NCBI RefSeq assembly: GCF_044324875.1
Contig: NZ_CP172185.1
Origin: Escherichia coli
GTDB lineage: Bacteria > Pseudomonadota > Gammaproteobacteria > Enterobacterales > Enterobacteriaceae
Direction: 5' to 3' (one strand)
DNA length: 64,000 nt
Within the stretch, counting starts at the first letter, position 1, and every line of letters begins with the position of its first letter. A program made the translations under genes and the position numbers. Below are positions 1 through 23,263 of the stretch, piece after piece. The notes below the pieces were generated by a model that saw only the letters and a program-made list of their open reading frames with translations, did no database searches and was not told the origin of the DNA.

Positions 1-931
1 ATCGGCACGCGGTGATATTTCCCTGACCTATTTCGAGTACGGTACGCTGTCGGCGTTGTGGCTGTTCAAGCAGGCACAACTTGACGTGGTGATTCTGGAA
101 GTAGGGCTGGGCGGTCGTCTGGACGCAACCAATATTGTCGATGCCGATGTCGCGGTAGTAACCAGTATTGCGCTGGATCATACCGACTGGCTGGGGCCAG
201 ATCGCGAAAGCATTGGTCGCGAGAAAGCAGGCATCTTCCGCAGCGAAAAACCGGCAATTGTCGGTGAGCCGGAAATGCCTTCTACCATTGCTGATGTGGC
301 GCAGGAAAAAAGTGCACTGTTACAACGTCGGGGCGTTGAGTGGAACTATTCCGTCACCGATCATGACTGGACGTTTAGCGATGCTCACGGCACGCTGGAA
401 AATCTGCCGTTGCCGCTTGTCCCGCAACCGAATGCCGCAACGGCGCTGGCGGCACTGCGTGCCAGCGGGCTGGAGGTCAGTGAAAATGCCATTCGCGACG
501 GGATTGCCAGCGCAATTTTGCCGGGACGTTTCCAGATTGTGAGCGAGTCGCCACGTGTTATTTTTGATGTCGCGCATAATCCACATGCGGCGGAATATCT
601 CACCGGGCGTATGAAAGCGCTACCGAAAAACGGGCGCGTGCTGGCGGTTATCGGTATGCTACATGATAAAGATATTGCCGGAACTCTGGCCTGGTTGAAA
701 AGCGTGGTTGATGACTGGTATTGTGCGCCACTGGAAGGGCCGCGCGGTGCCACGGCAGCACAACTGCTTGAGCATTTGGGTAACGGCAAATCATTTGATA
801 GCGTGGCGCAGGCATGGGATGCCGCAATGGCGGACGCTAAAGCGGAAGATACCGTGCTGGTGTGTGGTTCGTTCCACACGGTCGCACATGTCATGGAAGT
901 GATTGACGCGAGGAGAAGCGGTGGCAAGTAA
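1..931 (+). CDS. folC: folylpolyglutamate synthase / dihydrofolate synthase, 3' portion (5' end upstream of window)
   Basis: Reading frame open from the left edge to the stop at 931; track gives the C-terminal 291 aa ending ...IDARRSGGK; Mur-ligase-like C-terminal domain; followed by dedD-cvpA-purF as in E. coli. Confidence 0.9.
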   Translation, partial: SARGDISLTYFEYGTLSALWLFKQAQLDVVILEVGLGGRLDATNIVDADVAVVTSIALDHTDWLGPDRESIGREKAGIFRSEKPAIVGEPEMPSTIADVAQEKSALLQRRGVEWNYSVTDHDWTFSDAHGTLENLPLPLVPQPNAATALAALRASGLEVSENAIRDGIASAILPGRFQIVSESPRVIFDVAHNPHAAEYLTGRMKALPKNGRVLAVIGMLHDKDIAGTLAWLKSVVDDWYCAPLEGPRGATAAQLLEHLGNGKSFDSVAQAWDAAMADAKAEDTVLVCGSFHTVAHVMEVIDARRSGGK

Positions 932-1571
932 GTTTCAGAATCGGTTAGTGGGCACGATCGTGCTGGTGGCGCTGGGGGTGATTGTACTTCCAGGGCTGCT
1001 GGACGGGCAGAAAAAACATTATCAGGATGAGTTCGCGGCTATCCCGCTGGTGCCAAAAGCAGGCGATCGCGATGAGCCTGATATGATGCCAGCCGCCACC
1101 CAGGCGCTGCCGACGCAGCCGCCGGAAGGCGCAGCGGAAGAGGTGCGGGCAGGTGATGCCGCAGCACCGTCGCTCGATCCGGCCACTATTGCAGCCAATA
1201 ACACCGAGTTTGAACCGGAACCTGCACCGGTCGCCCCACCGAAGCCGAAACCGGTGGAGTCGCCTAAACCGAAGGTTGAAGCACCACCTGCGCCGAAGCC
1301 GGTCGTGGAAGAAAAAGCAGCGCCAACGGGTAAAGCCTATGTTGTACAACTGGGCGCACTGAAAAATGCCGATAAAGTGAATGAGATTGTCGGTAAGCTG
1401 CGCGGTGCCGGTTATCGGGTTTATACGTCGCCATCCACGCCAGTGCAGGGTAAAATTACCCGTATTCTGGTTGGGCCAGATGCCTCGAAAGATAAGCTGA
1501 AAGGTTCGCTGGGTGAGTTGAAGCAACTTTCTGGCTTAAGTGGTGTGGTAATGGGCTACACGCCGAATTAA
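903..1571 (+). CDS. dedD: cell division protein DedD (SPOR domain)
   Basis: 222 aa ORF with N-terminal TM segment, Pro/Ala/Lys-rich linker and C-terminal SPOR-like domain; start ambiguous: ATG at 903 or GTG at 921, which sits 5 nt after an AGGAG at 911-915. Confidence 0.85.
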   Translation: MTRGEAVASKFQNRLVGTIVLVALGVIVLPGLLDGQKKHYQDEFAAIPLVPKAGDRDEPDMMPAATQALPTQPPEGAAEEVRAGDAAAPSLDPATIAANNTEFEPEPAPVAPPKPKPVESPKPKVEAPPAPKPVVEEKAAPTGKAYVVQLGALKNADKVNEIVGKLRGAGYRVYTSPSTPVQGKITRILVGPDASKDKLKGSLGELKQLSGLSGVVMGYTPN

Positions 1572-1578
1572 TACGGTC

Positions 1579-1850
<272 letters not shown>

Positions 1851-1882
1851 ATTGCACGATGCCGCAAAGGCATAAAAAGTCG

Positions 1883-1918
1883 ATGGCGTTGAATATTTTT
1901 TCAGCGCCATTTTTATTG
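1883..1918 (+). terminator. candidate rho-independent terminator after dedD
   Basis: Imperfect hairpin ggcgttgaa...ttcagcgcc followed by a T-rich run (atttttatt). Confidence 0.45.
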
Positions 1919-1939
1919 ATGCGTGGGAAGGAAATCCCT

Positions 1940-1955
1940 ACGCAAACGTTTTCTT
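1940..1955 (+). promoter_or_regulatory. PurR operator (pur box) overlapping the cvpA-purF promoter
   Basis: acgcaaacgttttctt matches the 16 bp PurR box consensus ACGCAAACGTTTTCNT; a -10-like tagaat follows at 1963-1968, about 45 bp before the cvpA start. Confidence 0.8.
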
Positions 1956-2011
1956 TTTCTGTTAGAATGCGCCCCGAACAGGATGACAGGGCGTAAAATC
2001 GTGGGACACAT

Positions 2012-2500
2012 ATGGTCTGGATTGATTACGCCATAATCGCGGTGATTGCTTTTTCCTCTCTGGTTAGCCTGATCCGCGGCTTTGTTCGTGAAGCGTTATC
2101 GCTGGTGACATGGGGTTGTGCTTTCTTTGTTGCCAGTCATTACTACACTTACCTGTCAGTCTGGTTTACGGGCTTTGAAGACGAACTGGTTCGAAATGGG
2201 ATTGCCATCGCGGTACTGTTTATCGCTACCCTGATCGTTGGTGCTATCGTGAACTTCGTGATAGGCCAGTTGGTAGAGAAAACGGGGTTGTCAGGCACCG
2301 ATCGGGTGCTGGGCGTCTGTTTCGGTGCGTTGCGCGGTGTGTTGATTGTTGCCGCCATTCTCTTCTTTCTCGACTCCTTTACCGGGGTGTCGAAAAGCGA
2401 AGACTGGAGCAAATCACAGCTGATCCCCCAGTTCAGTTTTATCATCAGATGGTTTTTTGATTATCTGCAAAGCTCGTCAAGTTTCTTGCCCAGAGCGTAA
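2012..2500 (+). CDS. cvpA: colicin V production / membrane protein CvpA
   Basis: 162 aa multi-TM protein immediately upstream of purF, the conserved cvpA-purF-ubiX arrangement. Confidence 0.9.
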   Translation: MVWIDYAIIAVIAFSSLVSLIRGFVREALSLVTWGCAFFVASHYYTYLSVWFTGFEDELVRNGIAIAVLFIATLIVGAIVNFVIGQLVEKTGLSGTDRVLGVCFGALRGVLIVAAILFFLDSFTGVSKSEDWSKSQLIPQFSFIIRWFFDYLQSSSSFLPRA

Positions 2501-2536
2501 GTGCTCTGAGATGTGGCTTAACGAGGAAAAAGACGT

Positions 2537-4054
2537 ATGTGCGGTATTGTCGGTATCGCCGGTGTTATGCCGGTTAACCAGTCGATTTATGATGCCTTAA
2601 CGGTGCTTCAGCATCGCGGTCAGGATGCCGCCGGCATCATCACCATAGATGCCAATAACTGCTTCCGTTTGCGTAAAGCGAACGGGCTGGTGAGCGATGT
2701 ATTTGAAGCTCGCCATATGCAGCGTTTGCAGGGCAATATGGGCATTGGTCATGTGCGTTACCCTACGGCTGGCAGCTCCAGCGCCTCTGAAGCGCAGCCA
2801 TTTTACGTTAACTCTCCGTATGGCATTACGCTTGCCCACAACGGCAATCTGACCAACGCGCATGAGTTACGTAAAAAACTGTTTGAAGAAAAACGCCGCC
2901 ACATCAACACCACTTCCGACTCGGAAATTCTGCTTAATATCTTCGCCAGCGAGCTGGACAACTTCCGCCACTACCCGCTGGAAGCCGACAACATTTTCGC
3001 CGCCATCGCTGCTACAAACCGCTTAATCCGCGGCGCGTATGCCTGTGTGGCGATGATTATCGGCCACGGTATGGTTGCTTTCCGCGATCCAAACGGGATT
3101 CGTCCGCTGGTACTGGGAAAACGTGATATTGACGAGAACCGCACAGAATATATGGTCGCTTCCGAAAGCGTTGCGCTCGATACACTAGGCTTTGATTTCC
3201 TGCGTGACGTCGCGCCTGGCGAAGCGATTTACATCACTGAAGAAGGGCAGTTGTTTACCCGTCAATGTGCTGACAATCCGGTCAGCAATCCGTGCCTGTT
3301 TGAGTATGTATACTTTGCTCGCCCGGACTCGTTCATCGACAAAATTTCCGTTTACAGCGCGCGTGTGAATATGGGCACGAAGCTGGGCGAGAAAATTGCC
3401 CGCGAATGGGAAGATCTGGATATCGACGTGGTGATCCCGATCCCGGAAACCTCGTGTGATATCGCGCTGGAAATTGCTCGTATTCTGGGCAAACCGTACC
3501 GTCAGGGCTTCGTTAAAAACCGCTATGTAGGCCGTACCTTCATCATGCCGGGTCAGCAGCTGCGTCGTAAGTCCGTGCGCCGTAAACTGAACGCCAACCG
3601 CGCCGAGTTCCGCGATAAAAACGTCCTGCTGGTCGACGACTCCATCGTCCGTGGCACCACTTCTGAGCAGATTATCGAGATGGCACGCGAAGCCGGAGCG
3701 AAGAAAGTGTATCTCGCTTCTGCGGCACCGGAAATTCGCTTCCCGAACGTTTATGGTATTGATATGCCGAGCGCCACGGAACTGATCGCTCACGGTCGCG
3801 AAGTAGATGAAATTCGCCAGATCATCGGTGCTGACGGGTTGATTTTCCAGGATCTGAACGATCTGATCGAAGCCGTTCGCGCTGAAAACCCGGATATCCA
3901 GCAGTTTGAATGCTCGGTGTTCAACGGCGTCTACGTCACCAAAGATGTTGATCAGGGCTACCTCGATTTCCTCGATACTTTACGTAATGACGACGCCAAA
4001 GCCGTGCAACGTCAGAACGAAGTGGAAAATCTCGAAATGCATAACGAAGGATGA
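2537..4054 (+). CDS. purF: amidophosphoribosyltransferase
   Basis: 505 aa; N-terminal MCGIVGI (Ntn amidotransferase Cys1) and PRTase-type C-terminal domain. Confidence 0.97.
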
Positions 4055-4148
4055 TGCCTTCGCTCAGGGTGCCGGTCTGGCACCCTGACTTGCAACTCCC
4101 GCCGAAATCCTGCAAAGTCTGCCTGCAAGTCTGACAGGGCAACTATTT

Positions 4149-4718
4149 ATGAAACGACTCATTGTAGGCATCAGCGGTGCCAGCGGCGCGATTTATGGCG
4201 TGCGCTTATTACAGGTTCTGCGCGATGTCGCAGATGTTGAAACGCATCTGGTAATGAGCCAGGCCGCGCGCCAGACCTTATCTCTTGAAACGGATTTTTC
4301 CCTGCGCGAAGTGCAGGCGTTAGCTGATGTGACGCACGATGCGCGCGATATTGCTGCCAGCATCTCTTCTGGTTCTTTCCAGACGCTGGGGATGGTGATT
4401 TTACCCTGTTCAATCAAAACCCTGTCCGGCATTGTCCATAGCTATACTGATGGCTTACTGACCCGTGCGGCAGATGTGGTGCTGAAAGAGCGTCGCCCGT
4501 TGGTGCTCTGCGTACGTGAAACACCATTGCACTTAGGCCATCTGCGTTTAATGACTCAGGCAGCAGAAATCGGTGCGGTGATTATGCCTCCCGTTCCGGC
4601 GTTTTATCATCGCCCGCAATCCCTTGATGATGTGATAAATCAGACGGTTAACCGTGTACTCGATCAATTCGCCATAACGCTTCCTGAAGATCTCTTTGCC
4701 CGCTGGCAGGGCGCATAA
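4149..4718 (+). CDS. ubiX: flavin prenyltransferase UbiX
   Basis: 189 aa, N-terminal MKRLIVGISGASGAIYGVRLL flavoprotein fold; position after purF. Confidence 0.93.
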   Translation: MKRLIVGISGASGAIYGVRLLQVLRDVADVETHLVMSQAARQTLSLETDFSLREVQALADVTHDARDIAASISSGSFQTLGMVILPCSIKTLSGIVHSYTDGLLTRAADVVLKERRPLVLCVRETPLHLGHLRLMTQAAEIGAVIMPPVPAFYHRPQSLDDVINQTVNRVLDQFAITLPEDLFARWQGA

Positions 4719-4727
4719 CTCCGCTGT

Positions 4728-4748
4728 TGCCCTGTTTCAGGGCAATTT
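4728..4748 (+). terminator. candidate hairpin terminator after ubiX
   Basis: Inverted repeat ttgccctg-tttc-agggcaa directly after the ubiX stop; weak T-tract. Confidence 0.4.
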
Positions 4749-4899
4749 TGCAACCGCGATCAAATCCTCGACATTTTGTTTCTGCCATTCAATCGAAACG
4801 CTGCGATTCAACCGCTATACCTGCTATCTTCAACTTCAGGACAATAATGCAACGTCTTATTAACATATTTAACGTTGAATGTTACTGTTGTCGTAATGA

Positions 4900-4915
4900 T
4901 GGCATAAGACCTGCA
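4900..4915 (+). promoter_or_regulatory. candidate sigma54 (-24/-12) promoter for argT
   Basis: tGGcataagacctGCa fits the GG-N10-GC spacing of TGGCAC-N5-TTGCA; about 70 bp upstream of the argT ATG. Confidence 0.5.
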
Positions 4916-4983
4916 TGAAAGAGCCTGCAAACACACAACACAATACACAACATAAAAAAGCCATTTTCACTTGAGGGTTATGT

Positions 4984-5766
4984 ATGAAGAAGTCGATTCT
5001 CGCTCTGTCTTTGTTAGTCGGTCTCTCCGCAGCGGCTTCCAGCTATGCGGCGCTACCGGAGACGGTACGTATCGGAACTGATACCACCTATGCGCCGTTC
5101 TCATCGAAAGATGCCAAAGGTGACTTTGTTGGCTTTGATATCGATCTCGGTAACGAGATGTGCAAACGGATGCAGGTGAAATGTACCTGGGTTGCCAGTG
5201 ACTTTGACGCGCTGATCCCCTCACTGAAAGCGAAAAAAATCGACGCCATTATTTCGTCGCTTTCCATTACCGATAAACGTCAGCAGGAGATTGCTTTCTC
5301 CGACAAGTTGTACGCCGCAGATTCTCGTTTGATTGCCGCCAAAGGTTCGCCGATTCAGCCAACGCTGGATTCACTGAAAGGTAAACATGTGGGTGTGCTG
5401 CAGGGATCAACCCAGGAAGCTTACGCTAACGAGACCTGGCGTAGCAAAGGTGTGGATGTGGTGGCCTATGCCAACCAGGATTTGGTCTATTCCGATCTGG
5501 CTGCAGGACGTCTGGATGCCGCACTGCAGGATGAAGTGGCGGCCAGCGAAGGATTCCTCAAGCAACCTGCTGGTAAAGAGTTCGCCTTTGCTGGCTCATC
5601 AGTGAAAGACAAAAAATACTTCGGTGACGGCACCGGTGTAGGGCTACGTAAAGATGATGCGGAACTGACGGCTGCCTTCAATAAGGCGCTTGGCGAGCTG
5701 CGTCAGGACGGCACCTACGACAAGATGGCGAAAAAGTATTTTGACTTTAATGTCTACGGTGACTGA
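4984..5766 (+). CDS. argT: lysine/arginine/ornithine-binding periplasmic protein
   Basis: 260 aa with signal peptide; highly similar to the adjacent HisJ; upstream of hisJQMP. Confidence 0.93.
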
Positions 5767-5824
5767 TACGTCGCAGGGAAGCTGTACCTGATGGAATGAT
5801 CATCATGGTGCACGCCAGGTTTGT

Positions 5825-5841
5825 TGCACTATCGTAGTGCA
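5825..5841 (+). promoter_or_regulatory. candidate NtrC-type binding site upstream of hisJ
   Basis: Perfect palindrome tgcact-atcgt-agtgca in the TGCACY-N5-RGTGCA format, in the argT-hisJ intergenic region. Confidence 0.5.
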
Positions 5842-5986
5842 TTGAAATGCATACTTAAGCATTTTTAATGAAAAATAATACGTCTAACGGGGCGGGATAT
5901 TTTGCCTTGATGGTCAATTTTATGGCACGATAAGTGTAACAAACCTGTAAATATTCCCTATAAAAAGACTGTCAGTTGAGGACATT

Positions 5987-6769
5987 ATGAAAAAACTGGT
6001 GCTATCGCTCTCTCTGGTTCTGGCCTTCTCCAGCGCAACTGTGGCGTTTGCTGCGATTCCGCAAAACATCCGCATCGGTACCGATCCGACCTATGCGCCA
6101 TTTGAATCAAAAAATTCACAAGGTGAACTGGTTGGCTTCGATATCGATCTGGCAAAGGAGTTGTGCAAACGCATCAATACGCAATGTACGTTTGTCGAAA
6201 ACCCACTGGATGCGTTAATCCCGTCCTTAAAAGCGAAGAAGATTGACGCCATCATGTCATCGCTTTCCATTACGGAAAAACGTCAGCAAGAAATAGCCTT
6301 CACCGACAAACTGTACGCAGCCGATTCTCGTCTGGTGGTGGCGAAAAACTCCGACATTCAGCCGACAGTCGAATCGCTGAAAGGCAAGCGGGTAGGCGTA
6401 TTGCAGGGCACCACCCAGGAGACGTTCGGTAACGAACACTGGGCACCAAAAGGCATTGAAATCGTCTCGTATCAGGGGCAGGACAACATTTATTCTGACC
6501 TGACTGCCGGACGTATTGATGCCGCGTTCCAGGATGAGGTCGCAGCCAGCGAAGGTTTCCTCAAACAACCCGTCGGTAAAGATTACAAATTCGGTGGCCC
6601 GTCTGTTAAAGATGAAAAACTGTTTGGCGTAGGGACCGGCATGGGCCTGCGTAAAGAAGATAACGAACTGCGCGAGGCACTGAACAAAGCCTTTGCCGAA
6701 ATGCGCGCTGACGGTACTTACGAGAAATTAGCGAAAAAGTACTTCGATTTTGATGTTTATGGTGGTTAA
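5987..6769 (+). CDS. hisJ: histidine-binding periplasmic protein
   Basis: 260 aa with signal peptide, type-2 periplasmic binding fold; followed by hisQ-hisM-hisP. Confidence 0.95.
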
Positions 6770-6858
6770 TCGCCATCGGTGAAAGAAAGCCCGCTCCCTT
6801 CGGGTAACCGGAGGGAGACAAGAGGCGGTAATTCACCACACACGACAGGACAGGCTGC

Positions 6859-7545
6859 ATGTTGTATGGGTTTTCAGGTGTTATTTTACAGGGTGCGCTC
6901 GTCACGCTGGAGCTGGCTATCAGCTCTGTAGTGCTCGCTGTAATCATCGGTTTAATTGGCGCTGGCGGTAAGCTCTCGCAAAATCGGCTTTCGGGCCTTA
7001 TTTTCGAAGGCTACACCACGCTGATTCGTGGCGTGCCGGACTTGGTGTTGATGCTGCTAATTTTCTACGGTTTGCAGATTGCACTAAACACGGTGACGGA
7101 GGCGATGGGCGTCGGGCAGATTGATATTGATCCGATGGTCGCAGGTATTATCACTCTCGGTTTTATCTACGGTGCTTACTTTACCGAAACGTTCCGTGGC
7201 GCGTTTATGGCTGTGCCGAAAGGGCATATAGAGGCGGCGACGGCGTTCGGTTTTACTCGTGGGCAAGTGTTTCGGCGGATCATGTTTCCGGCGATGATGC
7301 GTTACGCCCTGCCAGGCATTGGCAACAACTGGCAGGTGATCCTCAAATCTACCGCTCTGGTTTCGTTACTTGGCCTGGAAGATGTGGTCAAAGCCACGCA
7401 GCTGGCAGGCAAAAGTACCTGGGAACCGTTCTATTTCGCCATCGTTTGTGGCGTGATTTACCTGGTTTTCACCACCGTTTCCAATGGTGTGCTGCTGTTC
7501 CTTGAGCGCCGCTACTCCGTGGGTGTGAAGAGGGCTGACCTGTGA
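6859..7545 (+). CDS. hisQ: histidine/lysine/arginine/ornithine ABC transporter permease
   Basis: 228 aa polytopic permease; its stop overlaps the hisM start. Confidence 0.93.
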   Translation: MLYGFSGVILQGALVTLELAISSVVLAVIIGLIGAGGKLSQNRLSGLIFEGYTTLIRGVPDLVLMLLIFYGLQIALNTVTEAMGVGQIDIDPMVAGIITLGFIYGAYFTETFRGAFMAVPKGHIEAATAFGFTRGQVFRRIMFPAMMRYALPGIGNNWQVILKSTALVSLLGLEDVVKATQLAGKSTWEPFYFAIVCGVIYLVFTTVSNGVLLFLERRYSVGVKRADL

Positions 7546-8258
7546 TCGAAATCTTACATGAATACTGGAAACCGTTGTTGTGGACCGACGGTTATCGCTT
7601 TACTGGCGTGGCGATCACCCTGTGGCTGCTGATTTTGTCGGTAGTGATAGGCGGAGTTCTGGCGCTGTTTCTGGCGATTGGTCGTGTCTCCAGTAATAAA
7701 TACATCCAGTTTCCAATCTGGTTATTTACCTATATTTTTCGCGGTACGCCGCTGTATGTTCAGTTGCTGGTGTTCTATTCCGGCATGTATACGCTGGAGA
7801 TTGTTAAGGGGACCGAGTTTCTTAACGCTTTCTTCCGCAGTGGCCTGAACTGTACCGTGCTGGCGCTTACGCTTAACACCTGCGCTTACACTACCGAGAT
7901 TTTTGCTGGGGCAATCCGTTCAGTGCCGCATGGGGAAATTGAAGCCGCCAGAGCCTATGGCTTCTCGACCTTTAAAATGTATCGCTGCATTATTTTGCCA
8001 TCGGCGCTGCGTATTGCGTTACCGGCCTACAGCAACGAAGTGATCCTGATGCTGCATTCTACTGCGCTGGCGTTTACGGCCACGGTGCCGGATCTGCTGA
8101 AAATTGCCCGTGATATCAACGCCGCGACGTATCAACCTTTTACCGCCTTCGGCATTGCCGCGGTGCTCTATTTAATCATCTCTTATGTCCTGATCAGCCT
8201 CTTTCGCAGAGCGGAAAAACGCTGGTTGCAGCATGTGAAACCTTCTTCAACGCACTGA
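7542..8258 (+). CDS. hisM: histidine/lysine/arginine/ornithine ABC transporter permease
   Basis: 238 aa polytopic permease; 4 bp overlap with hisQ. Confidence 0.93.
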
Positions 8259-8265
8259 GAATACG

Positions 8266-9039
8266 ATGTCCGAGAATAAATTAAACGTTATCGATTTGCA
8301 CAAACGCTACGGCGAACACGAAGTGCTGAAAGGGGTCTCACTGCAAGCGAATGCCGGAGATGTCATAAGCATCATCGGATCGTCGGGATCGGGGAAAAGT
8401 ACCTTTCTGCGCTGCATTAACTTCCTCGAAAAACCGAGTGAAGGGTCGATCGTGGTCAATGGCCAGACGATCAATCTGGTGCGCGACAAAGATGGTCAAC
8501 TCAAAGTCGCCGATAAAAATCAGCTGCGCTTACTGCGCACACGCCTGACGATGGTATTCCAGCACTTCAATCTCTGGAGCCACATGACGGTGCTGGAAAA
8601 CGTCATGGAAGCGCCGATTCAGGTGTTGGGCCTGAGCAAGCAGGAAGCGCGCGAGCGGGCGGTGAAGTATCTGGCAAAAGTTGGGATAGACGAACGTGCG
8701 CAGGGGAAATATCCGGTGCACCTGTCCGGTGGTCAGCAACAGCGTGTTTCCATCGCAAGGGCGCTGGCAATGGAACCGGAAGTTTTACTATTTGATGAAC
8801 CTACCTCGGCGCTCGATCCTGAACTGGTAGGCGAAGTGTTACGTATTATGCAGCAATTGGCAGAAGAGGGGAAAACCATGGTGGTAGTGACTCACGAAAT
8901 GGGCTTTGCTCGCCATGTTTCTACTCACGTCATTTTCCTCCATCAGGGGAAAATAGAAGAAGAGGGCGCGCCAGAACAGTTATTTGGTAACCCGCAAAGC
9001 CCTCGTCTGCAACAGTTCCTTAAAGGTTCGCTGAAATAA
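8266..9039 (+). CDS. hisP: histidine/lysine/arginine/ornithine ABC transporter ATP-binding protein
   Basis: 257 aa; Walker [13 protein letters not shown] signature LSGGQQQRV, Walker [12 protein letters not shown]. Confidence 0.96.
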
Positions 9040-9044
9040 TTTCC

Positions 9045-9076
9045 TCTCCGGTGGCTAACGCTGCCGGAGTATTTTC
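9045..9076 (+). terminator. candidate rho-independent terminator after hisP
   Basis: Hairpin ctccgg...ccggag followed by tatttt. Confidence 0.5.
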
Positions 9077-9235
9077 AAGGGGAATTTGCGAGTCCGCTTC
9101 CGCTGAAATGTAAAAGTTGCAGTCCGCTAAAAATAGTTCTGAATTCGCTGTCCAAAGATAAAAACTGCCTGCTGCATTGGGTGTAAATCGTGGTTATTGT
9201 CGCGTCATCTTAAATTTGAGGGGTGACGGAACGCC

Positions 9236-10126
9236 ATGACAATATCGACAACTTCCACGCCGCATGATGCGGTATTTAAATCTTTTTTACGCCATCCAGA
9301 CACCGCGCGGGATTTTATTGATATTCATCTTCCCGCGCCGCTGCGCAAACTGTGTGATTTAACGACGCTTAAACTGGAACCAAACAGTTTTATTGATGAA
9401 GACCTGCGGCAATATTATTCCGACCTCTTGTGGTCTGTGAAAACGCAGGAGGGAGCGGGTTATATTTATGTGGTGATAGAGCACCAAAGTAAGCCAGAGG
9501 AATTAATGGCTTTTCGCATGATGCGCTATTCCATTGCGGCGATGCAAAACCATCTTGATGCGGGTTATAAAGAGCTTCCATTAGTGATCCCGATGCTGTT
9601 TTATCATGGTTGCAGAAGCCCTTATCCATATTCACTCTGCTGGCTTGATGAATTTGCCGAGCCTGCGATTGCCCGCAAAATTTATTCATCGGCTTTTCCG
9701 CTGGTGGATATTACCGTGGTGCCGGATGACGAGATTATGCAACATCGCAAAATGGCGCTGTTGGAGTTAATTCAGAAACATATTCGTCAGCGCGATCTGT
9801 TGGGATTAGTCGACCAAATTGTTTCGCTGCTAGTTACAGGGAACACTAATGACAGACAGCTAAAAGCCCTGTTTAATTATGTATTACAAACGGGAGATGC
9901 CCAGCGTTTCCGTGCATTTATTGGTGAGATAGCGGAACGCGCACCACAAGAAAAGGAGAAACTGATGACCATTGCTGACAGATTACGTGAAGAAGGCGCA
10001 ATGCAGGGCAAACACGAAGAAGCCCTGCGTATTGCTCAGGAGATGCTGGAGAGAGGTTTAGACAGAGAGTTAGTTATGATGGTGACCCGACTTTCACCAG
10101 ACGATCTTATCGCGCAAAGCCACTAA
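9236..10126 (+). CDS. rpnB: recombination-promoting nuclease RpnB (transposase_31 / PD-(D/E)XK family, YhgA-like)
   Basis: 296 aa; N-terminal HDAVFKSFL motif typical of Rpn/YhgA-like proteins; position matches yfcI downstream of hisP. Confidence 0.8.
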
Positions 10127-10173
10127 TTCTGTAACACCAGGAGTTAACTGGCGGATGTTTGCAGTAAACCACA

Positions 10174-11067
10174 TCAGCGAACAACATCCGCCAGCGCCTC
10201 TTCTAAATCGTACCAGCGAAACGCAAAACCCGCTTCTTCCAGCCGTTTAGGCAATGCTCGTTGTCCACCTAATACCAGCACTGAAGATTCGCCCATTAAC
10301 AGTCGAATGGCGGTCACAGGGACGCGCAAAATGGCCGGGCGATGCAGCGCATGACCGAGCGCATGGGCAAATTGTTCATTGCGTACCGGGTAGGGCGAAA
10401 CCATATTAAATGGTCCACGCAGCTCGTTATCCAGCAGCCAGAGAATGCCGTTGACCATATCATCAATATGAATCCAGGCCAGATACTGCCGACCGGAGCC
10501 AATCGGCCCGCCCAGACCAAGACGAAACGGCGGCAGCATTTTACCGAGAATACCGCCATCCGGTGCCAGCACTACGCCGGTACGCAGCAGGCACACTCGC
10601 GTTTTGTCACTTTGCGCCCGGCAGGCAATCTCTTCCCAGCGGGCGCAGAGTTTATGAGTAAATTCGTTATGCGGCGGTTCCTCTTCGGTAACCACCACTT
10701 CACCTAAGTCGCCATAATAGCCCGTTGCCGAGCCGGAAATGAGTACCGACGGCGGCGTGTCGCTGGCATTAATCAAATCGACCAGTTTTTGCGTGATATT
10801 CCAGCGGCTTTGGCAGAGACGCTCTTTTTGCTCGTGAGTCCAGCGTTTATCAGCAATCGGCTCTCCGGCCAGGTTGATTACCGCATCAACGCCGTTGAGG
10901 TTACTTTGATCGGCAAGCCCTTGCCATAGTGTCACCCGAGGGCCGAGAACGGAACTGGCTTTCTGCGGGTTACGCGTCACTACCGTGATTTGATGGCCCA
11001 GATCCAGCAAACGCGGAATCAAATGGCGACCAATTAATCCCGTCCCTCCGGTGATCACTATGTTCAT
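10174..11067 (-). CDS. yfcH: NAD-dependent epimerase/dehydratase family protein (SDR-like)
   Basis: 297 aa; N-terminal [16 protein letters not shown]ossmann motif. Confidence 0.8.
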
Positions 11068-11087
11068 GCAGCCTCCCGATATGGCGG

Positions 11088-11450
11088 TTAACGCTGCCAG
11101 CTTAAGGTCATGGATACCGAATCGGCGTAGCGCAGCGCGTGCAGTTTATCGATCTCCACTTCAGCATACGTCACCCAGTGATGTTCACGTGCGATATCGA
11201 GCACATCCTGAGTTAATTTTTCCAGCAAAGAGAAACGGTTATTCTCTACATGCTGAATAATGTTTTTCGTTACAGTGCGATAATTCAGCGCATCGTTGAT
11301 ATCTTCGCTAGTGCGCGCTTTATCGGCGGGGTAGTGGATCGTCACATTGATAACAATATCCTGACGGTTGTTAATTTCTTCTTCCTTAATTCCGATAAAC
11401 GTACGTAAACGAAGGTTCTTTATACGAATAATAGCGGCAGGTTGTGCCAT
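11088..11450 (-). CDS. folX: dihydroneopterin triphosphate 2'-epimerase
   Basis: 120 aa FolB/FolX-fold protein, 20 bp upstream of yfcH on the same strand. Confidence 0.85.
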
Positions 11451-11506
11451 TGCAGGTTCTCCGTTGTTTTACTTAGGATGAAATAATACACGAGAACCTG
11501 TTTCTG

Positions 11507-12985
<1,479 letters not shown>

Positions 12986-12988
12986 TGA

Positions 12989-13543
12989 GTGATGAAACTG
13001 ATGTTTGCATCGGACATTCATGGGTCGTTACCGGCGACGGAACGTGTTCTGGAGTTGTTTGCCCAAAGCGGTGCCCAGTGGCTGGTGATCCTTGGCGACG
13101 TGTTGAATCACGGCCCGCGTAATGCTTTACCGGAGGGTTACGCGCCAGCCAAAGTCGCTGAACGGCTTAATGAAGTGGCACATAAGGTTATCGCTGTGCG
13201 CGGCAACTGCGACAGCGAAGTGGATCAAATGCTTTTGCATTTCCCGATAACCGCGCCGTGGCAACAGGTATTACTGGAAAAACAACGTCTGTTTTTGACG
13301 CATGGTCATCTGTTTGGGCCGGAAAATCTGCCTGCTTTAAACCAGAACGATGTGCTGGTGTACGGTCATACCCATCTGCCAGTGGCAGAACAGCGGGGGG
13401 AGATTTTCCACTTCAACCCCGGCTCGGTGAGTATTCCTAAAGGCGGTAATCCGGCGAGTTATGGCATGCTGGATAATGACGTACTTAGTGTAATCGCACT
13501 CAATGATCAAAGTATCATTGCGCAGGTCGCGATTAATCCGTAA
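12989..13543 (+). CDS. yfcE: metallophosphoesterase (phosphodiesterase)
   Basis: 184 aa; calcineurin-like motifs DIHG, GDVLNHGPRN, GNCD. Confidence 0.8.
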   Translation: MMKLMFASDIHGSLPATERVLELFAQSGAQWLVILGDVLNHGPRNALPEGYAPAKVAERLNEVAHKVIAVRGNCDSEVDQMLLHFPITAPWQQVLLEKQRLFLTHGHLFGPENLPALNQNDVLVYGHTHLPVAEQRGEIFHFNPGSVSIPKGGNPASYGMLDNDVLSVIALNDQSIIAQVAINP

Positions 13544-13600
13544 TTTACCCACAACTCAAAATGCGCCGTAAGAGCGCCAGAAAAAGAAGGTTTCCTGATA

Positions 13601-14143
13601 ATGGAACAGCGTCGTTTGGCAAGTACTGAATGGGTGGATATTGTCAATGAAGAGAACGAAGTCATTGCACAAGCCAGCCGGGAACAAATGCGGGCACAGT
13701 GTCTGCGTCATCGTGCAACTTACATCGTCGTGCATGATGGCATGGGCAAAATTCTGGTCCAGCGTCGTACCGAGACAAAAGACTTTTTACCCGGCATGTT
13801 AGATGCGACCGCAGGCGGTGTAGTCCAGGCCGATGAGCAACTGCTGGAATCCGCGCGTCGCGAAGCGGAAGAAGAGTTGGGCATTGCCGGTGTCCCCTTT
13901 GCCGAGCACGGGCAGTTCTATTTCGAAGATAAAAATTGCCGTGTGTGGGGCGCGTTGTTCAGTTGCGTCTCTCACGGTCCCTTCGCCCTACAGGAAGATG
14001 AAGTCAGTGAAGTTTGCTGGCTGACACCGGAAGAAATCACCGCACGCTGCGATGAGTTCACTCCAGACTCGCTGAAAGCGCTGGCGTTGTGGATGAAGCG
14101 CAATGCCAAAAATGAAGCCGTAGAGACTGAAACGGCAGAATGA
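13601..14143 (+). CDS. yfcD: Nudix hydrolase
   Basis: 180 aa; Nudix box [23 protein letters not shown]. Confidence 0.8.
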
Positions 14144-14177
14144 AAAAAGAGCCGCAATTGCGGCTCTTAACATTTTT
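14143..14177. terminator. bidirectional hairpin terminator between convergent yfcD and yfcC
   Basis: aaaaaagagccgcaattgcggctctt...ttttt: perfect stem flanked by A-run and T-run. Confidence 0.7.
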
Positions 14178-15696
14178 AGTGGTAGCCCATCAACTGAGCG
14201 CCGATCACCACGACGCTGGACATAATAAACAGCAGTCCAAGCAGTGTCGCGCCCACCTTCAGCCAGTTACGGAAGTCCACCCGGCAAACACCTAGCGTTG
14301 CCATTAACGAAGCTGAGGTCGGGTAAATGATGTGGCTGAAGCCATCACCAAACTGGAACGCCAGCACGGTAACCTGACGGTTAACACCGACCAGATCGCC
14401 AAGCGGTGCCAGTAACGGCATGGTTAACGCCGCCTGACCAGAACCGGACGTCACGAAGAAATTAAATACCGCCTGGAAGAGCAACATAAACCAGGCCGCG
14501 ACCGCATTGTCCAGACCGCTAATGGCATTGGCAATGCTGTTGAGGATGGTATTTAACACGCTGGCATCACCCGCTTCACCATTACCGACCAGCAGCAAAA
14601 TCCCTTTGGCGAAACCCACCAGCAGGGCAGGGGCGATCATCATTCGCGCCCCTTCGGTAAAGGATGAAGCCATGGTATTAACCGTCATGCCGTTAAGGCG
14701 GAAAACAACGCCGATGATGCCAATCACCAGACCCATGGTGAAGAACTGGCTGGCAATTTCTGGAATAAACCAGGCATTAACGATCACGCCCCAAATCACC
14801 CAGACCATTACGGCGGTCAGGACAATCAATACCAGCCAGTCACCAAAGGTAAACGGACGTTGTTCAACATCCGCCTGCTTTTCACGAAAGAAGCGGTCGG
14901 ACTCATGCACGCGTGACAGAAGAGGATTCTTTTTCACTCGTGAGGCGTACACCATGGTAAAGATCAGGCCAATCAGAGTGGCGATAACCCACACCACGAT
15001 GCGCAACCCGGAGCCAGAAAGCACCGGAACGCCGGCAATCCCCTGAGCAACAACCACACAAAACGGGTTCATCCACGAACTGGCAAAACCGATTTGCGTG
15101 GCGATATAGGTCACCAGGACGGTGGTAATACTGTCATAGCCCAGCCGGACCATTAGCGGTGCGATGATAATGGCAAAGGCGACGGCCTCTTCTCCCATAC
15201 CAAATACCGCGCCGCCAAGTGAAAACAGAATAAAGAGCGCAGGAATAAAGAGAATTTCATTTCCGCGGGTATGGCGAATAAGCGCCAGGATACCGTTATC
15301 AATGGTTCCTGTACGCATCACAATGCCAAACGCGCCGCCAATCACCAGCATAAACATGATGATGCCAACGGCTGTCCCGTATTTCGATCCTGAGGTTAAC
15401 CCTTCAAACGGGAAGTTCATCAGACCCGGGCGTTCATCGCCCGTCGTGAACAGCTGTACGCGGTGATACTCAGGTTCGCCTGCTTCGTTAGTCAGAATGC
15501 GAAAAGAGTGTGGATCTACGACTTTGCGAGTTTTTGTTTGACCATCAACCTGATACTGCACTTCCTGACTGTCAAACATGCCCACCGGAACTACCCAGGT
15601 GGCAAGGCTGGTTAAAATAGCAACAAAAAAGATAATCACCAACGTATCGGGCATTGCCCATCTTCTTGTTGGTTTAGATTCAGTGATTGCGGACAT
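14176..15696 (-). CDS. yfcC: inner-membrane transporter, YfcC/C4-dicarboxylate anaerobic carrier family
   Basis: Large polytopic membrane ORF; ATG at 15696 (MSAITESKPTRR...) preferred over the in-frame GTG at 15717 used in the track. Confidence 0.8.
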   Translation of the reverse strand: MSAITESKPTRRWAMPDTLVIIFFVAILTSLATWVVPVGMFDSQEVQYQVDGQTKTRKVVDPHSFRILTNEAGEPEYHRVQLFTTGDERPGLMNFPFEGLTSGSKYGTAVGIIMFMLVIGGAFGIVMRTGTIDNGILALIRHTRGNEILFIPALFILFSLGGAVFGMGEEAVAFAIIIAPLMVRLGYDSITTVLVTYIATQIGFASSWMNPFCVVVAQGIAGVPVLSGSGLRIVVWVIATLIGLIFTMVYASRVKKNPLLSRVHESDRFFREKQADVEQRPFTFGDWLVLIVLTAVMVWVIWGVIVNAWFIPEIASQFFTMGLVIGIIGVVFRLNGMTVNTMASSFTEGARMMIAPALLVGFAKGILLLVGNGEAGDASVLNTILNSIANAISGLDNAVAAWFMLLFQAVFNFFVTSGSGQAALTMPLLAPLGDLVGVNRQVTVLAFQFGDGFSHIIYPTSASLMATLGVCRVDFRNWLKVGATLLGLLFIMSSVVVIGAQLMGYH

Positions 15697-15811
15697 AGCG
15701 CAAATATTCCCTTGCACAAAACAAAGTGGTAAGTATGCAAAGTGAGATGGCGCAATTCATTGATGCAGCGCAGTTAAGCAAGATAATCAGAAAGGATTAA
15801 TGCAAATTAAG

Positions 15812-15876
15812 AGAATAAAAAACCGGAAATAGTCACTATTTCCGGTTCCGATATCCGCAGCGCAAAGCTGCGGATG
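15812..15876 (-). terminator. pta terminator region (two hairpins, one with T-tract)
   Basis: Minus-strand hairpins ccgcagc-tttgc-gctgcgg and aaccggaaatagtgactatttccggtt followed by tttttt, directly downstream of the pta stop. Confidence 0.7.
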
Positions 15877-15885
15877 ATGACGAGA

Positions 15886-18030
15886 TTACTGCTGCTGTGC
15901 AGACTGAATCGCAGTCAGCGCGATGGTGTAGACGATATCGTCAACCAGTGCGCCACGGGACAGGTCGTTAACCGGCTTGCGCATACCCTGCAGCATCGGC
16001 CCGATGGAGATCAGGTCGGCAGAACGCTGTACCGCTTTGTAGGTGGTGTTACCGGTGTTCAGATCCGGGAAGATGAACACGGTAGCGCGACCTGCAACCG
16101 GAGAGTTCGGCGCTTTGGATTTCGCAACGTCAGCCATTACCGCAGCGTCGTACTGCAGCGGACCGTCGATCATCAGGTCAGGACGTTTTTCCTGCGCCAG
16201 ACGAGTTGCTTCGCGAACTTTTTCTACGTCGCTACCAGCACCAGAAGTCCCGGTGGAGTAGGAGAGCATAGCAACGCGCGGTTCGATACCGAAGGCCGCA
16301 GCGGAATCAGCGGACTGAATCGCGATTTCTGCCAGCTGTTCTGCGGTCGGATCCGGGTTGATCGCACAGTCACCGTAAACGTAAACCTGTTCCGGCAGCA
16401 GCATGAAGAACACGGAAGATACCAGGGAGCTGCCCGGTGCAGTTTTGATCAGCTGCAGCGGCGGACGGATGGTGTTTGCGGTGGTGTGAACAGCACCGGA
16501 AACCAGACCATCAACTTCATCCTGTTCCAGCATCAGCGTACCGAGAACCACGTTGTCTTCCAGCTGTTCGCGGGCAACGGTTTCGGTCATGCCTTTGTTC
16601 TTACGCAGTTCGACCAGACGACCAACATAGCTTTCGCGAACCACTTCTGGATCAACGATTTCAATGCCTGCACCCAGTTCTACACCCTGAGACGCTGCAA
16701 CACGGTTGATCTCTGCCGGATTACCCAGCAGTACGCAAGTTGCGATACCACGTTCAGCACAGATAGCGGCTGCTTTAACGGTACGCGGTTCGTCACCTTC
16801 CGGCAGAACGATACGTTTGCCCGCTTTGCGCGCAAGTTCGGTCAGCTGATAACGGAACGCTGGCGGAGACAGACGACGGCTGCGCTCAGAAGTGGCAGTC
16901 AGAGAATCGATCCAGTCAGCGTTGATGTAGTTAGCAACGTATTCCTGAACTTTCTCGATACGCTCGTGATCGTCAACCGGAACTTCCAGGTTGAAGCTCT
17001 GCAGGCTCAGAGAAGTCTGCCAGGTGTTGGTGTTCACCATAAATACCGGCAGGCCGGTAGCGAAAGCACGTTCGCACAGTTTAGAAATGCGCGCGTCCAT
17101 TTCGTAGCCGCCAGTCAGCAGCAGGGCACCGATTTCTACGCCGTTCATGGCTGCCAGGCACGCGGCAACCAGCACGTCAGGGCGGTCTGCGGAAGTCACC
17201 AGCAGAGAACCGGCACGGAAGTGCTCCAGCATGTGCGGAATGCTGCGTGCGCAGAAAGTGACGGATTTAACGCGGCGAGTATTGATGTCGCCTTCGTTGA
17301 TGATGGTCGCATTCAGGTGGCGAGCCATATCGATCGCACGAGTCGCGATCAGGTCAAAGCTCCACGGCACAGCGCCGAGAACCGGCAGCGGGCTGGATTC
17401 TTGCAGCTTCGCCGGATCAACATTGTTTACTTTAGCTTTGGAAGAGTCGTCGAAAATCTCGGACAGATCCGGGCGAGTACGACCCTGTTCATCAACCGGT
17501 GCGTTCAGTTTGTTAACGATAACGCCGGTGATGTTGGTGTTTTTGGCACCGCCGAAGCTGTTGCGGGTCAGTTCGATACGCTCTTTCAGCTGTTCCGGGG
17601 TGTCAGTGCCCTGAGACATAACGAAGACGATTTCCGCATTCAGCGTTTTAGCGATTTCGTAGTTCAGAGACTGGGCAAACTGGTGCTTACGTGTCGGGAC
17701 CAGACCTTCAACCAGAACGACTTCAGCGTCTTTGGTGTTAGCGTGGTAGTTTGCGACGATCTCTTCCATCAGCACATCTTTCTGATTGCTGGAAAGCAGA
17801 CCTTCAACGTAGCTCATTTTCAGCGGTTCAGCGGCCGTCGTGGTGGAAGAGTTCGCACGCACGATAGTGGTAGTCTGATCGGGCGCATCGCCACCGGTAC
17901 GCGGCTGAGCGATAGGTTTGAAAACGCTCAGACGAACGCCTTTGCGTTCCATTGCACGGATCACGCCAAGGCTGACGCTGGTCAGACCGACGCTGGTTCC
18001 GGTAGGGATCAGCATAATAATACGGGACAC
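15886..18030 (-). CDS. pta: phosphate acetyltransferase
   Basis: 714 aa with N-terminal [28 protein letters not shown] and C-terminal PTA domain. Confidence 0.97.
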
Positions 18031-18104
18031 GGTTTATCCTCTTTCGTTACCGCCGATTTGGCGGGTTACAAAACAGCACCGCCAGCTTAGCTGGCGGTGT
18101 GAAA

Positions 18105-20100: not shown

Positions 20101-20104
20101 TTGA

Positions 20105-20677
<573 letters not shown>

Positions 20678-20687
20678 GGAGGCCCGC

Positions 20688-21338: not shown

Positions 21339-21356
21339 AACACCTGATCATGATTT

Positions 21357-21383
21357 AGCCCCGTCTCGTCGGGGCTTTTTTAT
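21357..21383 (+). terminator. rho-independent terminator after yfbT
   Basis: gccccg-tctcgt-cggggc followed by tttttat. Confidence 0.7.
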
Positions 21384-23257: not shown

Positions 23258-23263
23258 CAAGAG

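Follow-up and report, generated by a model that had tools for sequence, protein, structure and literature searches.

Organization of the argT-hisJQMP cluster

The 64 kb Escherichia coli window (the whole stretch of DNA that was analyzed) carries two adjacent binding-protein genes, argT and hisJ, with ubiX as the upstream neighbor of argT and with hisQ, hisM, and hisP following on the same strand (Table 1). The RefSeq annotation lists the same five genes. Both binding-protein ORFs encode 260 residues on the plus strand, as the original prediction had stated, and the gene names that it proposed are supported by the NCBIfam equivalog models, since each ORF passes its own model only. The argT ORF scores 582.8 bits on the ArgT model NF011586 (cut-off 440) and 423.8 bits on the HisJ model, which is below the cut-off of 459. 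The hisJ ORF scores 597.5 bits on the HisJ model NF011965 (cut-off 459) and 433.3 bits on the ArgT model, which is below the cut-off of 440. Mature ArgT is identical to the Salmonella LAO structure 1LAF at 223 of 238 residues, and mature HisJ is identical to the E. coli HisJ structure 2M8C at all 238 residues (100%) and to structure 1HPB at 234 of 238. The crystallized mature chains begin at ArgT ORF residue 23, and the preceding residues 1-22 show the basic-hydrophobic-small pattern of a putative export signal. The spacer between argT and hisJ measures 220 nt and is free of ORFs of at least 80 aa, and the start of hisM overlaps the stop of hisQ by 4 nt.

Table 1. Genes and sequence elements of the argT-hisJQMP cluster (positions in the window)
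Feature	Position	Strand	Description
sigma54 (-24/-12) promoter of argT, TGGCATAAGACCTGCA	4900..4915	+	Exact match to TGGCAY-N5-YTGCW
C/A-rich element, argT 5' leader	4925..4952	+	Predicted GcvB sRNA (R1 seed) pairing site
argT	4984..5766	+	Lysine/arginine/ornithine-binding periplasmic protein (LAO), 260 aa precursor; NCBIfam ArgT equivalog
NtrC-type palindrome, TGCACTATCGTAGTGCA	5825..5841	+	argT-hisJ spacer
ARG-box-like sequence	5836..5853	+	Tentative ArgR site; 3 mismatches to the ARG-box consensus
Candidate hisJ sigma70 promoter	about 5907-5935		TTGATG-17-ATAAGT, identified by eye
sigma54-like element, TGGCACGATAAGTGTA	5923..5938	+	5' of hisJ; -12 'GC' changed to 'GT' (5936-5937)
hisJ	5987..6769	+	Histidine-binding periplasmic protein, 260 aa precursor; NCBIfam HisJ equivalog
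GC-rich hairpin, CTCCCTTCGG-GTAA-CCGGAGGGAG	6794..6817	+	Just 3' of hisJ; 10 bp, no T-run
C/A-rich element, CACCACACACGACAGG	6835..6850	+	5' of the hisQ start; reported GcvB site for hisQ
hisQ	6859..7545	+	Permease subunit; NCBIfam HisQ 479.1 bits (cut-off 319)
hisM	7542..8258	+	Permease subunit; NCBIfam HisM 464.7 bits (cut-off 306)
hisP	8266..9039	+	ATP-binding subunit; NCBIfam HisP equivalog 577.6 bits (cut-off 466)
Intrinsic terminator	9046..9069	+	Cluster end; 10-bp stem with 7 GC pairs, then TATTTTC

ArgT and HisJ are anciently diverged paralogs

Since the early 1980s, ArgT and HisJ, as homologs that share a membrane complex, have served as a founding case of ABC transport that depends on binding proteins. 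This paralogy and the common use of HisQMP2 are therefore already known, and the original prediction, which was made without tools, had rightly presented them as textbook knowledge. The case serves here as a positive control in which a reader of the letters alone correctly recognized both the paralog pair and the transporter, and the added analysis gives a picture of one binding-protein gene becoming two.

A pairwise BLASTP alignment of the two proteins gave 167 identical residues out of 246 (68%), with 83% positives, no gaps, and an E value of 6e-132. The match goes far past what chance would give and lies well above the threshold of about 50% that accompanied the original prediction, and it is close to the identity of about 70% given in the literature (PMC6640053, PMC5708682, PMC3102756, PMC10846223). 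Without gaps and over the full length, 174 of 260 residues are identical (66.9%), and over the mature chains 164 of 238 (68.9%). The long identical stretches that had been noticed in the translations are genuine, with the longest runs covering 15, 14, and 10 residues; the string quoted as an example is present, and its 41-residue ArgT and HisJ versions differ at three positions only. The identical stretches include the ligand-backbone-binding residues S69, S70, S72, and R77.

At the DNA level the two genes are far apart. The nucleotide identity is 67.8% overall and 43% at third codon positions, no run of identical DNA exceeds 14 nt, and the substitution estimates are a pS of 0.717 (dS about 2.3) and a dN of 0.23. 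Each copy is 94 to 98% identical to its own Salmonella ortholog, as compared to only 164 to 168 of 238 residues shared between the paralogs. The duplication is ancient, not recent. Because silent sites are saturated and the Salmonella orthologs are far closer than the neighboring gene, we attribute the identical peptide stretches to purifying selection. A recent duplication, or continuing gene conversion between the neighbors, would also account for shared peptide runs of up to 15 residues, and the layout of argT and hisJ as adjacent direct repeats would permit conversion. However, in the most conserved block (aa 75-116) a pS of 0.74 accompanies a pN of 0.03, so silent sites there are as saturated as elsewhere (pS 0.71), which indicates selection and not conversion. 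Moreover, across about 25 genera ArgT is monophyletic in 493 of 500 replicates and HisJ in 485 of 500. Silent-site saturation rules out this explanation, to which we assign practically no probability.

The ligand pocket separates the two proteins

The ligand-contact residues are the same in ArgT and HisJ at 11 of 13 positions. ArgT has all of the LAO pocket residues, namely D11, Y14, F52, S69, S70, S72, R77, L117, S120, T121, Q122, and D161, a list that follows PMC3102756, PMC10609312, and the crystal-structure papers. The pocket of ArgT in the window contains F52 and S120, and that of HisJ contains L52 and T120. This difference is fixed in the sampled sequences, with F52/S120 in 26/26 ArgT and L52/T120 in 26/26 HisJ proteins; F52 is also found in 17/17 intact single-copy proteins. 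The ligands of ArgT are lysine, arginine, and ornithine (PMC6640053). In our preferred reading, both exported products close around the amino acid with nearly identical backbone-binding residues, and positions 52 (Phe/Leu) and 120 (Ser/Thr) account for the binding of Lys, Arg, and Orn by ArgT and for the preference of HisJ for His. Of the two copies, HisJ is the more derived, and we infer that the functional change ran in its direction, through a shift in specificity (F52L).

One permease set is reported to serve both binding proteins

Only one permease/ATPase set is encoded in the cluster (6859-9039, same strand), and no second set is linked to argT. The same layout with a single hisQMP set occurs in 51/51 tandem loci among the matches listed. 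The docking of liganded ArgT and HisJ on HisQMP2 (at HisQM), with stimulation of the HisP ATPase, has been described (PMC6640053, PMC5708682, PMC3102756, PMC10846223). The common use of HisQMP2 is thus a literature statement, which fits the single permease set found here; in our reading, ArgT and HisJ both dock on this single ABC importer, HisQMP2, whose genes directly follow hisJ. The terminator at the end of the cluster has a predicted folding energy of -22.8 kcal/mol (z -4.3).

The hisJ-hisQ spacer is highly structured, with a folding energy of -34.8 kcal/mol (z -3.8) and none of 200 shuffles as stable. The C/A-rich element CACCACACACGACAGG that follows the hairpin is kept in the Escherichia, Salmonella, Citrobacter, and Kosakonia spacers, and the verified R1 targets of GcvB include hisQ, at its junction with hisJ (PMC9299463). 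The calculated GcvB duplex at this site was no better than that of shuffles (-23.0 vs -21.0 ± 2.9). Together, the hairpin after hisJ and the second GcvB site, which precedes hisQ, probably determine how much binding protein is made relative to permease.

argT and hisJ differ in their control regions

The sigma54 promoter sequence TGGCATAAGACCTGCA matches without any difference the motif ATGGCATAAGACCTGCA that sigma54 ChIP-seq in E. coli K-12 placed 5' of argT (PMC4591121). Among the matches listed, an exact sigma54 motif occupies the argT-promoter position in 49/49 tandem loci that include ubiX and in 22/23 loci that hold one binding-protein gene. These 23 loci comprise 17 that are truly single-copy (16 with the motif) and six that are the argT of tandem pairs split at the edge of the stored locus (6/6). 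Downstream of the promoter, the predicted duplex between the argT leader and nt 62-92 of K-12 GcvB has an energy of -37.0 kcal/mol, as compared to -21.2 ± 2.9 for 500 dinucleotide shuffles, none of which was as good. It should be noted that the duplex was calculated on R1 only; full-length GcvB gave unrealistically long duplexes. argT is among the GcvB R1 targets (PMC9299463), and the hisJ leader lacks the C/A-rich GcvB element. In our reading, argT is now controlled by a sigma54 promoter that is functional and by a leader that GcvB targets.

The region upstream of hisJ is composed differently. The palindrome TGCACTATCGTAGTGCA is the sole zero-mismatch match to TGCACY-N5-RGTGCA in the 64 kb window and lies within a K-12 NtrC ChIP-seq peak assigned to hisJQMP (PMC4066584), the position of which was mapped with the argT sigma54 site as the anchor. 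Separate NtrC ChIP peaks are reported at argT and hisJ, with the hisJ peak being the stronger (PMC4066584). NtrC-type palindromes with up to two mismatches are present in 50/51 argT-hisJ spacers of other genera among the matches listed. The tentative ArgR site agrees in location with the report that ArgR binds upstream of the hisJ -35 element (PMC6640053), although ARG-box matches across the window are not above chance (10 found, 6.9 expected).

A sigma54 motif also recurs about -66 from the hisJ ATG, being exact in 16/51 spacers and present with at most one mismatch in 33/51, among the matches listed. The element reads ...GTGTA in Escherichia and ...CCGCA in Salmonella, whereas Citrobacter retains the exact ...CTGCA; the Citrobacter and Kluyvera motif is TGGCACGATAACTGCA. 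In E. coli, sigma54 ChIP found a site at argT and lists none for hisJ (PMC4591121), and argT is described as sigma54/NtrC-dependent and hisJ as sigma70/ArgR-dependent (PMC6640053). A sigma70 consensus scan of 4600-9300 returned no promoter, the hisJ sigma70 promoter of the literature being too weak for the scan. Likewise, no Rfam family matched within 4000-10200 at E ≤ 1. In the argT-hisJ spacer (fold z -1.7) we found no convincing intrinsic terminator after argT, the only candidate being one with a 5-bp stem at 5881-5894. With no strong terminator between the genes, and with argT-hisJQMP regarded as a single operon in some papers, argT and hisJ may be only partly independent in their transcription. 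Feeding one permease is nevertheless not the same as forming one simple operon, because each gene has a promoter of its own and the regulation of the two differs. In our reading, hisJQMP in Escherichia is now left with a sigma54 element that has decayed, alongside an NtrC site and the sigma70 promoter of the literature with its ArgR sites.

Because sigma54 motifs precede the first gene nearly everywhere and recur upstream of hisJ in the majority of spacers noted above, the promoter appears to have been copied together with the gene. A local alignment of the 200-nt regions upstream of argT and hisJ was marginal, with 26 of 500 shuffles scoring as well. A further reading is that, following such a promoter-inclusive copy, lineages differ in keeping the hisJ sigma54 promoter, and that NtrC at hisJ in E. 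coli acts in a non-canonical manner. NtrC could then use the crippled sigma54 promoter, use the sigma70 promoter, or act from a distance on argT. We consider this combined reading rather improbable; if true, the loci would form a natural series of regulatory subfunctionalization following a promoter-inclusive duplication.

Distribution and origin of the gene pair

The argT-hisJ locus was found in 5,424 of 5,426 complete E. coli genomes and is core in this species. A locus-specific divergent allele was considered for the window and rejected; the divergence of 1 to 2.7% per kb from typical E. coli spans its first ~16 kb. Loci of other genera came from a motif-limited scan, and the following counts hold among the matches listed. 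The order ubiX-argT-hisJ-hisQMP is found in 51/51 loci in which argT and hisJ are both complete; these loci come from genera of the Enterobacteriaceae and from related MAGs. The order ubiX-one gene-hisQ is found in 15 loci from seven genera (Pantoea, Erwinia, Mixta, Brenneria, Pectobacterium, Dickeya, and Serratia), and the single-copy loci belong to the Erwiniaceae, Pectobacteriaceae, and Yersiniaceae. The tandem duplication that had been predicted is supported by the adjacency of the genes, their shared strand, their gap-free collinear homology, and the single homolog in the ubiX-hisQ slot of the sister families. Taken together, we regard it as very nearly certain that an old tandem duplication including a sigma54/NtrC promoter was followed by a pocket-based split in specificity, with HisQMP2 kept in common and with control now separate. 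In outline, an ancestral gene for a single basic-amino-acid-binding protein would have sat between ubiX and hisQMP, and the gene and its sigma54/NtrC promoter would have been copied together in tandem.

In an NJ tree with ArtI/ArtJ as the outgroup, from which Erwinia persicina and Mangrovibacter HisJ (both mis-extracted, the latter truncated at a locus edge) and Mangrovibacter ArgT were left out, an ArgT+HisJ clade appeared in just 55 of 500 replicates. Because the tree does not recover this clade, some weight, though a minority of it, goes to a duplication that predates the Enterobacteriaceae, with the single-copy genes in Erwiniaceae, Pectobacteriaceae, and Yersiniaceae being ArgT orthologs and hisJ lost at least twice; we consider this somewhat unlikely. 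HisJ falls outside an ArgT+singles group in 240 of 500 replicates, a topology with less than 50% support, and the Erwiniaceae singles form the sister group of ArgT inside it, which matches the accepted family tree. Group-mean distances favor the quartet (outgroup,HisJ | ArgT,singles), and all single-copy proteins have the ArgT-type F52. However, once the distant outgroup (about 36% identity) is removed the topologies tie, with ArgT+HisJ in 195 and ArgT+Erwiniaceae in 207 of 500 replicates, and just three group-consensus sites are quartet-informative. The single-copy proteins are equally similar to ArgT (73.9%) and HisJ (74.1%). HisJ has twice as many fixed group-unique states as ArgT (10 vs 5), so its basal placement may be long-branch attraction. 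An older duplication also requires one duplication and at least two losses, as opposed to one duplication alone, and among the matches listed the motif-limited scan showed no genome with both genes outside the Enterobacteriaceae. The absence of a positive union of ArgT and HisJ in the tree would suit a horizontal gain of one gene beside a resident homolog, but this is very improbable. The two copies are about 70% identical to each other and about 74% identical to the single gene of the sister families, as compared to only about 36% identity to ArtI/ArtJ, the next E. coli paralogs. They are equal in length without indels, argT and hisJ have similar GC contents, and no mobile-element genes lie between them. 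The sigma54/NtrC architecture of argT is repeated upstream of hisJ, which is what a joint copy of promoter and gene would produce. A tandem duplication in place, which may date to the stem of the Enterobacteriaceae or to an earlier time, remains our preferred origin.

Comparison with related transporters

Similar arrangements of several binding proteins around one permease are known. In Pseudomonas, CbcWV with CbcX/CaiX/BetX follows the same principle, in which the substrate range is widened cheaply by extra binding proteins (PMC10846223), but these belong to an unrelated binding-protein family with unrelated substrates and form no tandem pair. The E. coli artPIQM-artJ system encodes a second ABC importer for polar amino acids. 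It belongs to the same family and has the paralogous ArtI and ArtJ for one permease, ArtQMP2, and family models cross-match at 165 to 190 bits. The sharing of ArtQMP2 is 'supposed' by analogy (PMC6640053). ArtI and ArtJ are only about 36% identical to ArgT and HisJ, and their genes are not adjacent, with artI inside the operon and artJ in a separate downstream unit.

The closest counterpart is argT-hisJQMP of Salmonella Typhimurium, the classic LAO/HisJ histidine permease, which has the same five genes in the same order. The Salmonella-type proteins, at the identities given above for the crystallized chains (ArgT 223/238, HisJ 234/238), share the F52/L52 pocket difference, and the locus of Salmonella enterica subsp. 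diarizonae is collinear with that of E. coli. The hisJ-hisQ spacer differs, measuring 89 nt with a single hairpin here and about 185 nt with a REP-type palindrome pair in Salmonella and Citrobacter. These palindromes were recognized by eye, and a strict REP regular expression gave no match on hisJ-hisQ spacers. A strong hairpin of different sequence was present at the same place in 20/20 genera inspected, single-copy families included.

Identity of the argT-hisJ pair

The original prediction described argT and hisJ as tandem paralogues that feed one permease. Two open reading frames (ORF1, argT; ORF2, hisJ) lie on the plus strand at exactly the positions predicted and are separated by a 220-nt spacer. 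BLASTP alignment of their products gave 167/246 identities (68%) and 83% positives with zero gaps (E 6e-132), which clears the threshold of about 50% identity attached to the predicted paralogy. Identity amounts to 174/260 residues over the full length and 164/238 over the mature chains, with the longest identical runs spanning 15, 14, and 10 residues. The shared peptide string quoted in support is found in both proteins, with mismatches at its three dotted positions only.

Using NCBIfam models, ORF1 scored 582.8 bits as the ArgT equivalog (cut-off 440) and 423.8 bits with the HisJ model, under the cut-off of 459. ORF2 passed the HisJ model with 597.5 bits and reached 433.3 bits with the ArgT model, under the cut-off of 440. 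The three ORFs 3' of hisJ pass the HisQ, HisM, and HisP models, and the cluster is flanked by UbiX upstream and an Rpn-family nuclease downstream. The E. coli annotation agrees with these identities; 5,424 of 5,426 complete E. coli genomes contain the 4.4-kb stretch at nearly full length, and its annotation names argT, hisJ, hisQ, hisM, and hisP. The mature ArgT chain agrees with the solved LAO protein of Salmonella at 223/238 positions; mature HisJ matches E. coli HisJ 2M8C at every position and 1HPB at 234/238. The pair is the E. coli counterpart of the classic LAO/HisJ-HisQMP system of Salmonella, and the prediction is correct in both observation and interpretation and describes known biology. 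All features of that system open to testing were found, except a tree uniting ArgT and HisJ.

LAO/ArgT takes Lys, Arg, and Orn as ligands, HisJ has a high affinity for His and a low one for Arg, their sequences are ∼70% identical, and both have the ABC importer HisQMP2 as partner (PMC6640053, PMC5708682, PMC3102756, PMC10846223). Docking of both proteins on HisQMP2 is thus stated in the literature and not read from the sequence. In the window and, among the matches listed, in all 51 tandem loci (stored loci with argT and hisJ complete), the pair is accompanied by a single linked permease set. The proteins have 11 of 13 pocket residues in common, the differences being F52/L52 and S120/T120; position 52 is also given as a pocket difference in the literature (PMC10609312).

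Features of the argT-hisJQMP region (window positions)
Feature	Position	Strand	Description
Hairpin then T-run	4725-4750		GTTGCCCTG-TTTC-AGGGCAATTTT; just 3' of ubiX
sigma54 -24/-12 element	4900-4915		exact; before argT
C/A-rich stretch	4925-4952		argT leader; predicted GcvB R1 pairing
argT (ORF1)	4984-5766	+	260 codons
NtrC-type palindrome	5825-5841		perfect; argT-hisJ spacer
sigma54-like element	5923-5938		before hisJ; -12 'GC' reads 'GT'
hisJ (ORF2)	5987-6769	+	260 codons
Hairpin	6794-6817		very stable, GC-rich, without T-run; just 3' of hisJ stop; z -3.8
C/A-rich element	6835-6850		matches hisQ GcvB site
Terminator	9046-9069		strong; end of cluster

Age and distribution of the duplication

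The two genes are 67.8% identical in DNA and 43% identical at third codon positions, and identical DNA runs reach 14 nt at most. Nei-Gojobori analysis gave a pS of 0.717, which is effectively saturated (dS ∼2.3), and a dN of 0.23; for aa 75-116, the block conserved best, the values were pS 0.74 and pN 0.03. Because silent sites are saturated, third positions have diverged, and identical DNA runs do not exceed 14 nt, the identical peptide stretches were kept by purifying selection. Recent copying or gene conversion as their source is ruled out by the silent-site saturation. These stretches include S69, S70, S72, and R77, with D161 in the second block, residues which grip a bound amino acid, whatever its side chain, by its alpha-amino and alpha-carboxylate groups (PMC3102756, PMC10609312). 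Since ArgT and HisJ are each 94-98% identical to their Salmonella counterpart as compared to 69-71% to their neighbour, the duplication is older than the Escherichia/Salmonella split.

A single degenerate-DNA scan of a species-representative genome collection for the shared peptide KRQQEIAF returned at least 120 loci; six of the matches listed, from unrelated phyla, were rejected as chance. Among the matches listed, the order ubiX-argT-hisJ-hisQMP was found in every locus with enough sequence from an Enterobacteriaceae genus (Citrobacter, Salmonella, Enterobacter, Klebsiella, Raoultella, Kluyvera, Kosakonia, Cedecea, Shimwellia, Siccibacter, Buttiauxella, Leclercia, Phytobacter, Superficieibacter, and others). 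At least 51 loci, part of them from metagenome-assembled genomes, hold complete argT and hisJ, and at least 15 loci from Pantoea, Erwinia, Mixta, Brenneria, Pectobacterium, Dickeya, and Serratia hold one binding-protein gene between ubiX and hisQ. The single protein is ∼74% identical to ArgT and HisJ alike, as compared to ∼70% between the two.

ArgT and HisJ were monophyletic in 493 and 485 of 500 bootstraps, respectively. A duplication on the Enterobacteriaceae stem is regarded as the simpler account, as it takes one event; an older duplication, which would need at least two subsequent losses, is less likely but plausible. The older date draws on the tree rooted with E. coli ArtI/ArtJ, a distant outgroup (∼36% identity), in which HisJ fell outside ArgT plus the single-copy proteins in 240/500 replicates and an ArgT-HisJ clade appeared in 55/500; when the outgroup was omitted, two rival groupings tied (195 versus 207 of 500). 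HisJ is read as the more derived copy because it has 10 fixed group-unique residues versus five in ArgT, and because position 52 is Leu in all sampled HisJ and Phe in all sampled ArgT and intact single-copy proteins.

Control of the two copies

The argT-hisJQMP genes are one cluster, not one simple operon. The argT sigma54 element is letter-identical to a sigma54 ChIP-seq site upstream of argT in K-12 (PMC4591121). With this site as anchor, published NtrC ChIP-seq peaks were placed on the window: the peak assigned to hisJQMP spans the spacer palindrome (23.7x), and a second, weaker peak lies over the argT promoter (5.4x) (PMC4066584). The palindrome is the only perfect NtrC-type one in the 64-kb window and lies ∼100 nt upstream of the hisJ sigma54-like element.

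Among the matches listed, 49/49 tandem loci carry an exact sigma54 motif ahead of the first binding-protein gene, as do 22 of 23 loci holding one such gene; 17 of the latter are truly single-copy (16 exact), and six are argT of tandem pairs whose stored locus stopped before hisJ (all exact). A second motif, fixed at about -66 from the hisJ ATG, is present in 33/51 argT-hisJ spacers (16 exact), and NtrC-type palindromes lie upstream of that position in 50/51, again among the matches listed. Because these motifs recur before both genes across genera, the duplicated unit seems, judging from sequence, to have included the nitrogen-regulated promoter. The sigma54 element of the hisJ copy is decayed in Escherichia, which fits the lack of a sigma54 ChIP site at hisJ in the K-12 data (PMC4591121). 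It also fits reports that hisJQMP is transcribed from a sigma70 promoter on which ArgR acts as a weak repressor, and that argT is sigma54/NtrC-dependent and ArgR-independent (PMC6640053). For NtrC action at the Escherichia hisJ control region, the literature consulted offers no explanation, although the peak is stronger than that at argT.

Transcription starting at the argT promoter may plausibly run on into the permease genes, since the argT-hisJ spacer contains no convincing terminator 3' of argT and argT-hisJQMP is taken as a single operon in some papers. The hairpin 3' of ubiX is probably the ubiX terminator; its two-mismatch match to the NtrC pattern, in the window and in other genera, was rejected as false. 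An inverted repeat (CAACGT...N16...ACGTTG, 4849-4876), in an A/T-rich region ∼30 nt before the argT sigma54 element, falls within the NtrC ChIP peak interval and is a possible site for IHF or a regulator.

The argT leader is predicted to pair with the R1 seed region of the K-12 sRNA GcvB at -37.0 kcal/mol (shuffles -21.2 ± 2.9, 0/500 as good), whereas duplex calculation on the hisJ leader (5939-5986), which lacks a C/A-rich stretch, gave no comparable R1 signal; sRNA control thus differs between the copies. In the literature, argT is listed as a GcvB R1 target and hisQ as a separately verified one, at the hisJ-hisQ junction (PMC9299463). A strong GC-rich hairpin lacking a T-run follows the binding-protein stop in 20/20 genera inspected (loci L002-L077 of the scan), single-copy ones included, with varying sequence and conserved architecture. 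The hisJ-hisQ spacer is 89 nt in the window but ∼185 nt in Salmonella and Citrobacter, where it carries an extra REP-type palindrome pair. The boundary hairpin would help to yield more binding protein than permease, as has reportedly been proposed for Salmonella.

Downstream gene and strain-level variation

Directly 3' of the hisP terminator lies an Rpn-family recombination-promoting nuclease gene (9236-10126, +; rpnB in RefSeq), which scores under the curated cut-offs of the RpnA and ISNCY-transposase models (∼465 bits versus 583). Over ubiX-hisP, two species-representative genomes labelled E. coli (L062 and L034) match the window at 95.3% and 93.2% identity; because thousands of RefSeq E. 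coli reach 98.4%, they are probably divergent Escherichia lineages under the E. coli name. Over argT-hisP, only one of the 5,426 complete E. coli genomes (isolate SC418, sediment, USA) matches the window at 99.9% identity, and none of the rest exceeds 98.4%; for the nuo region (30-34 kb), 203 genomes reach 99.9%. Compared with strain XJ6.1, the first ∼16 kb shows mismatches of ∼1-2.7% per kb, with lower rates thereafter (1-16000 versus 16000-34000). The divergence of the first ∼16 kb is not confined to argT-hisJ and resembles ordinary core-genome mosaicism.
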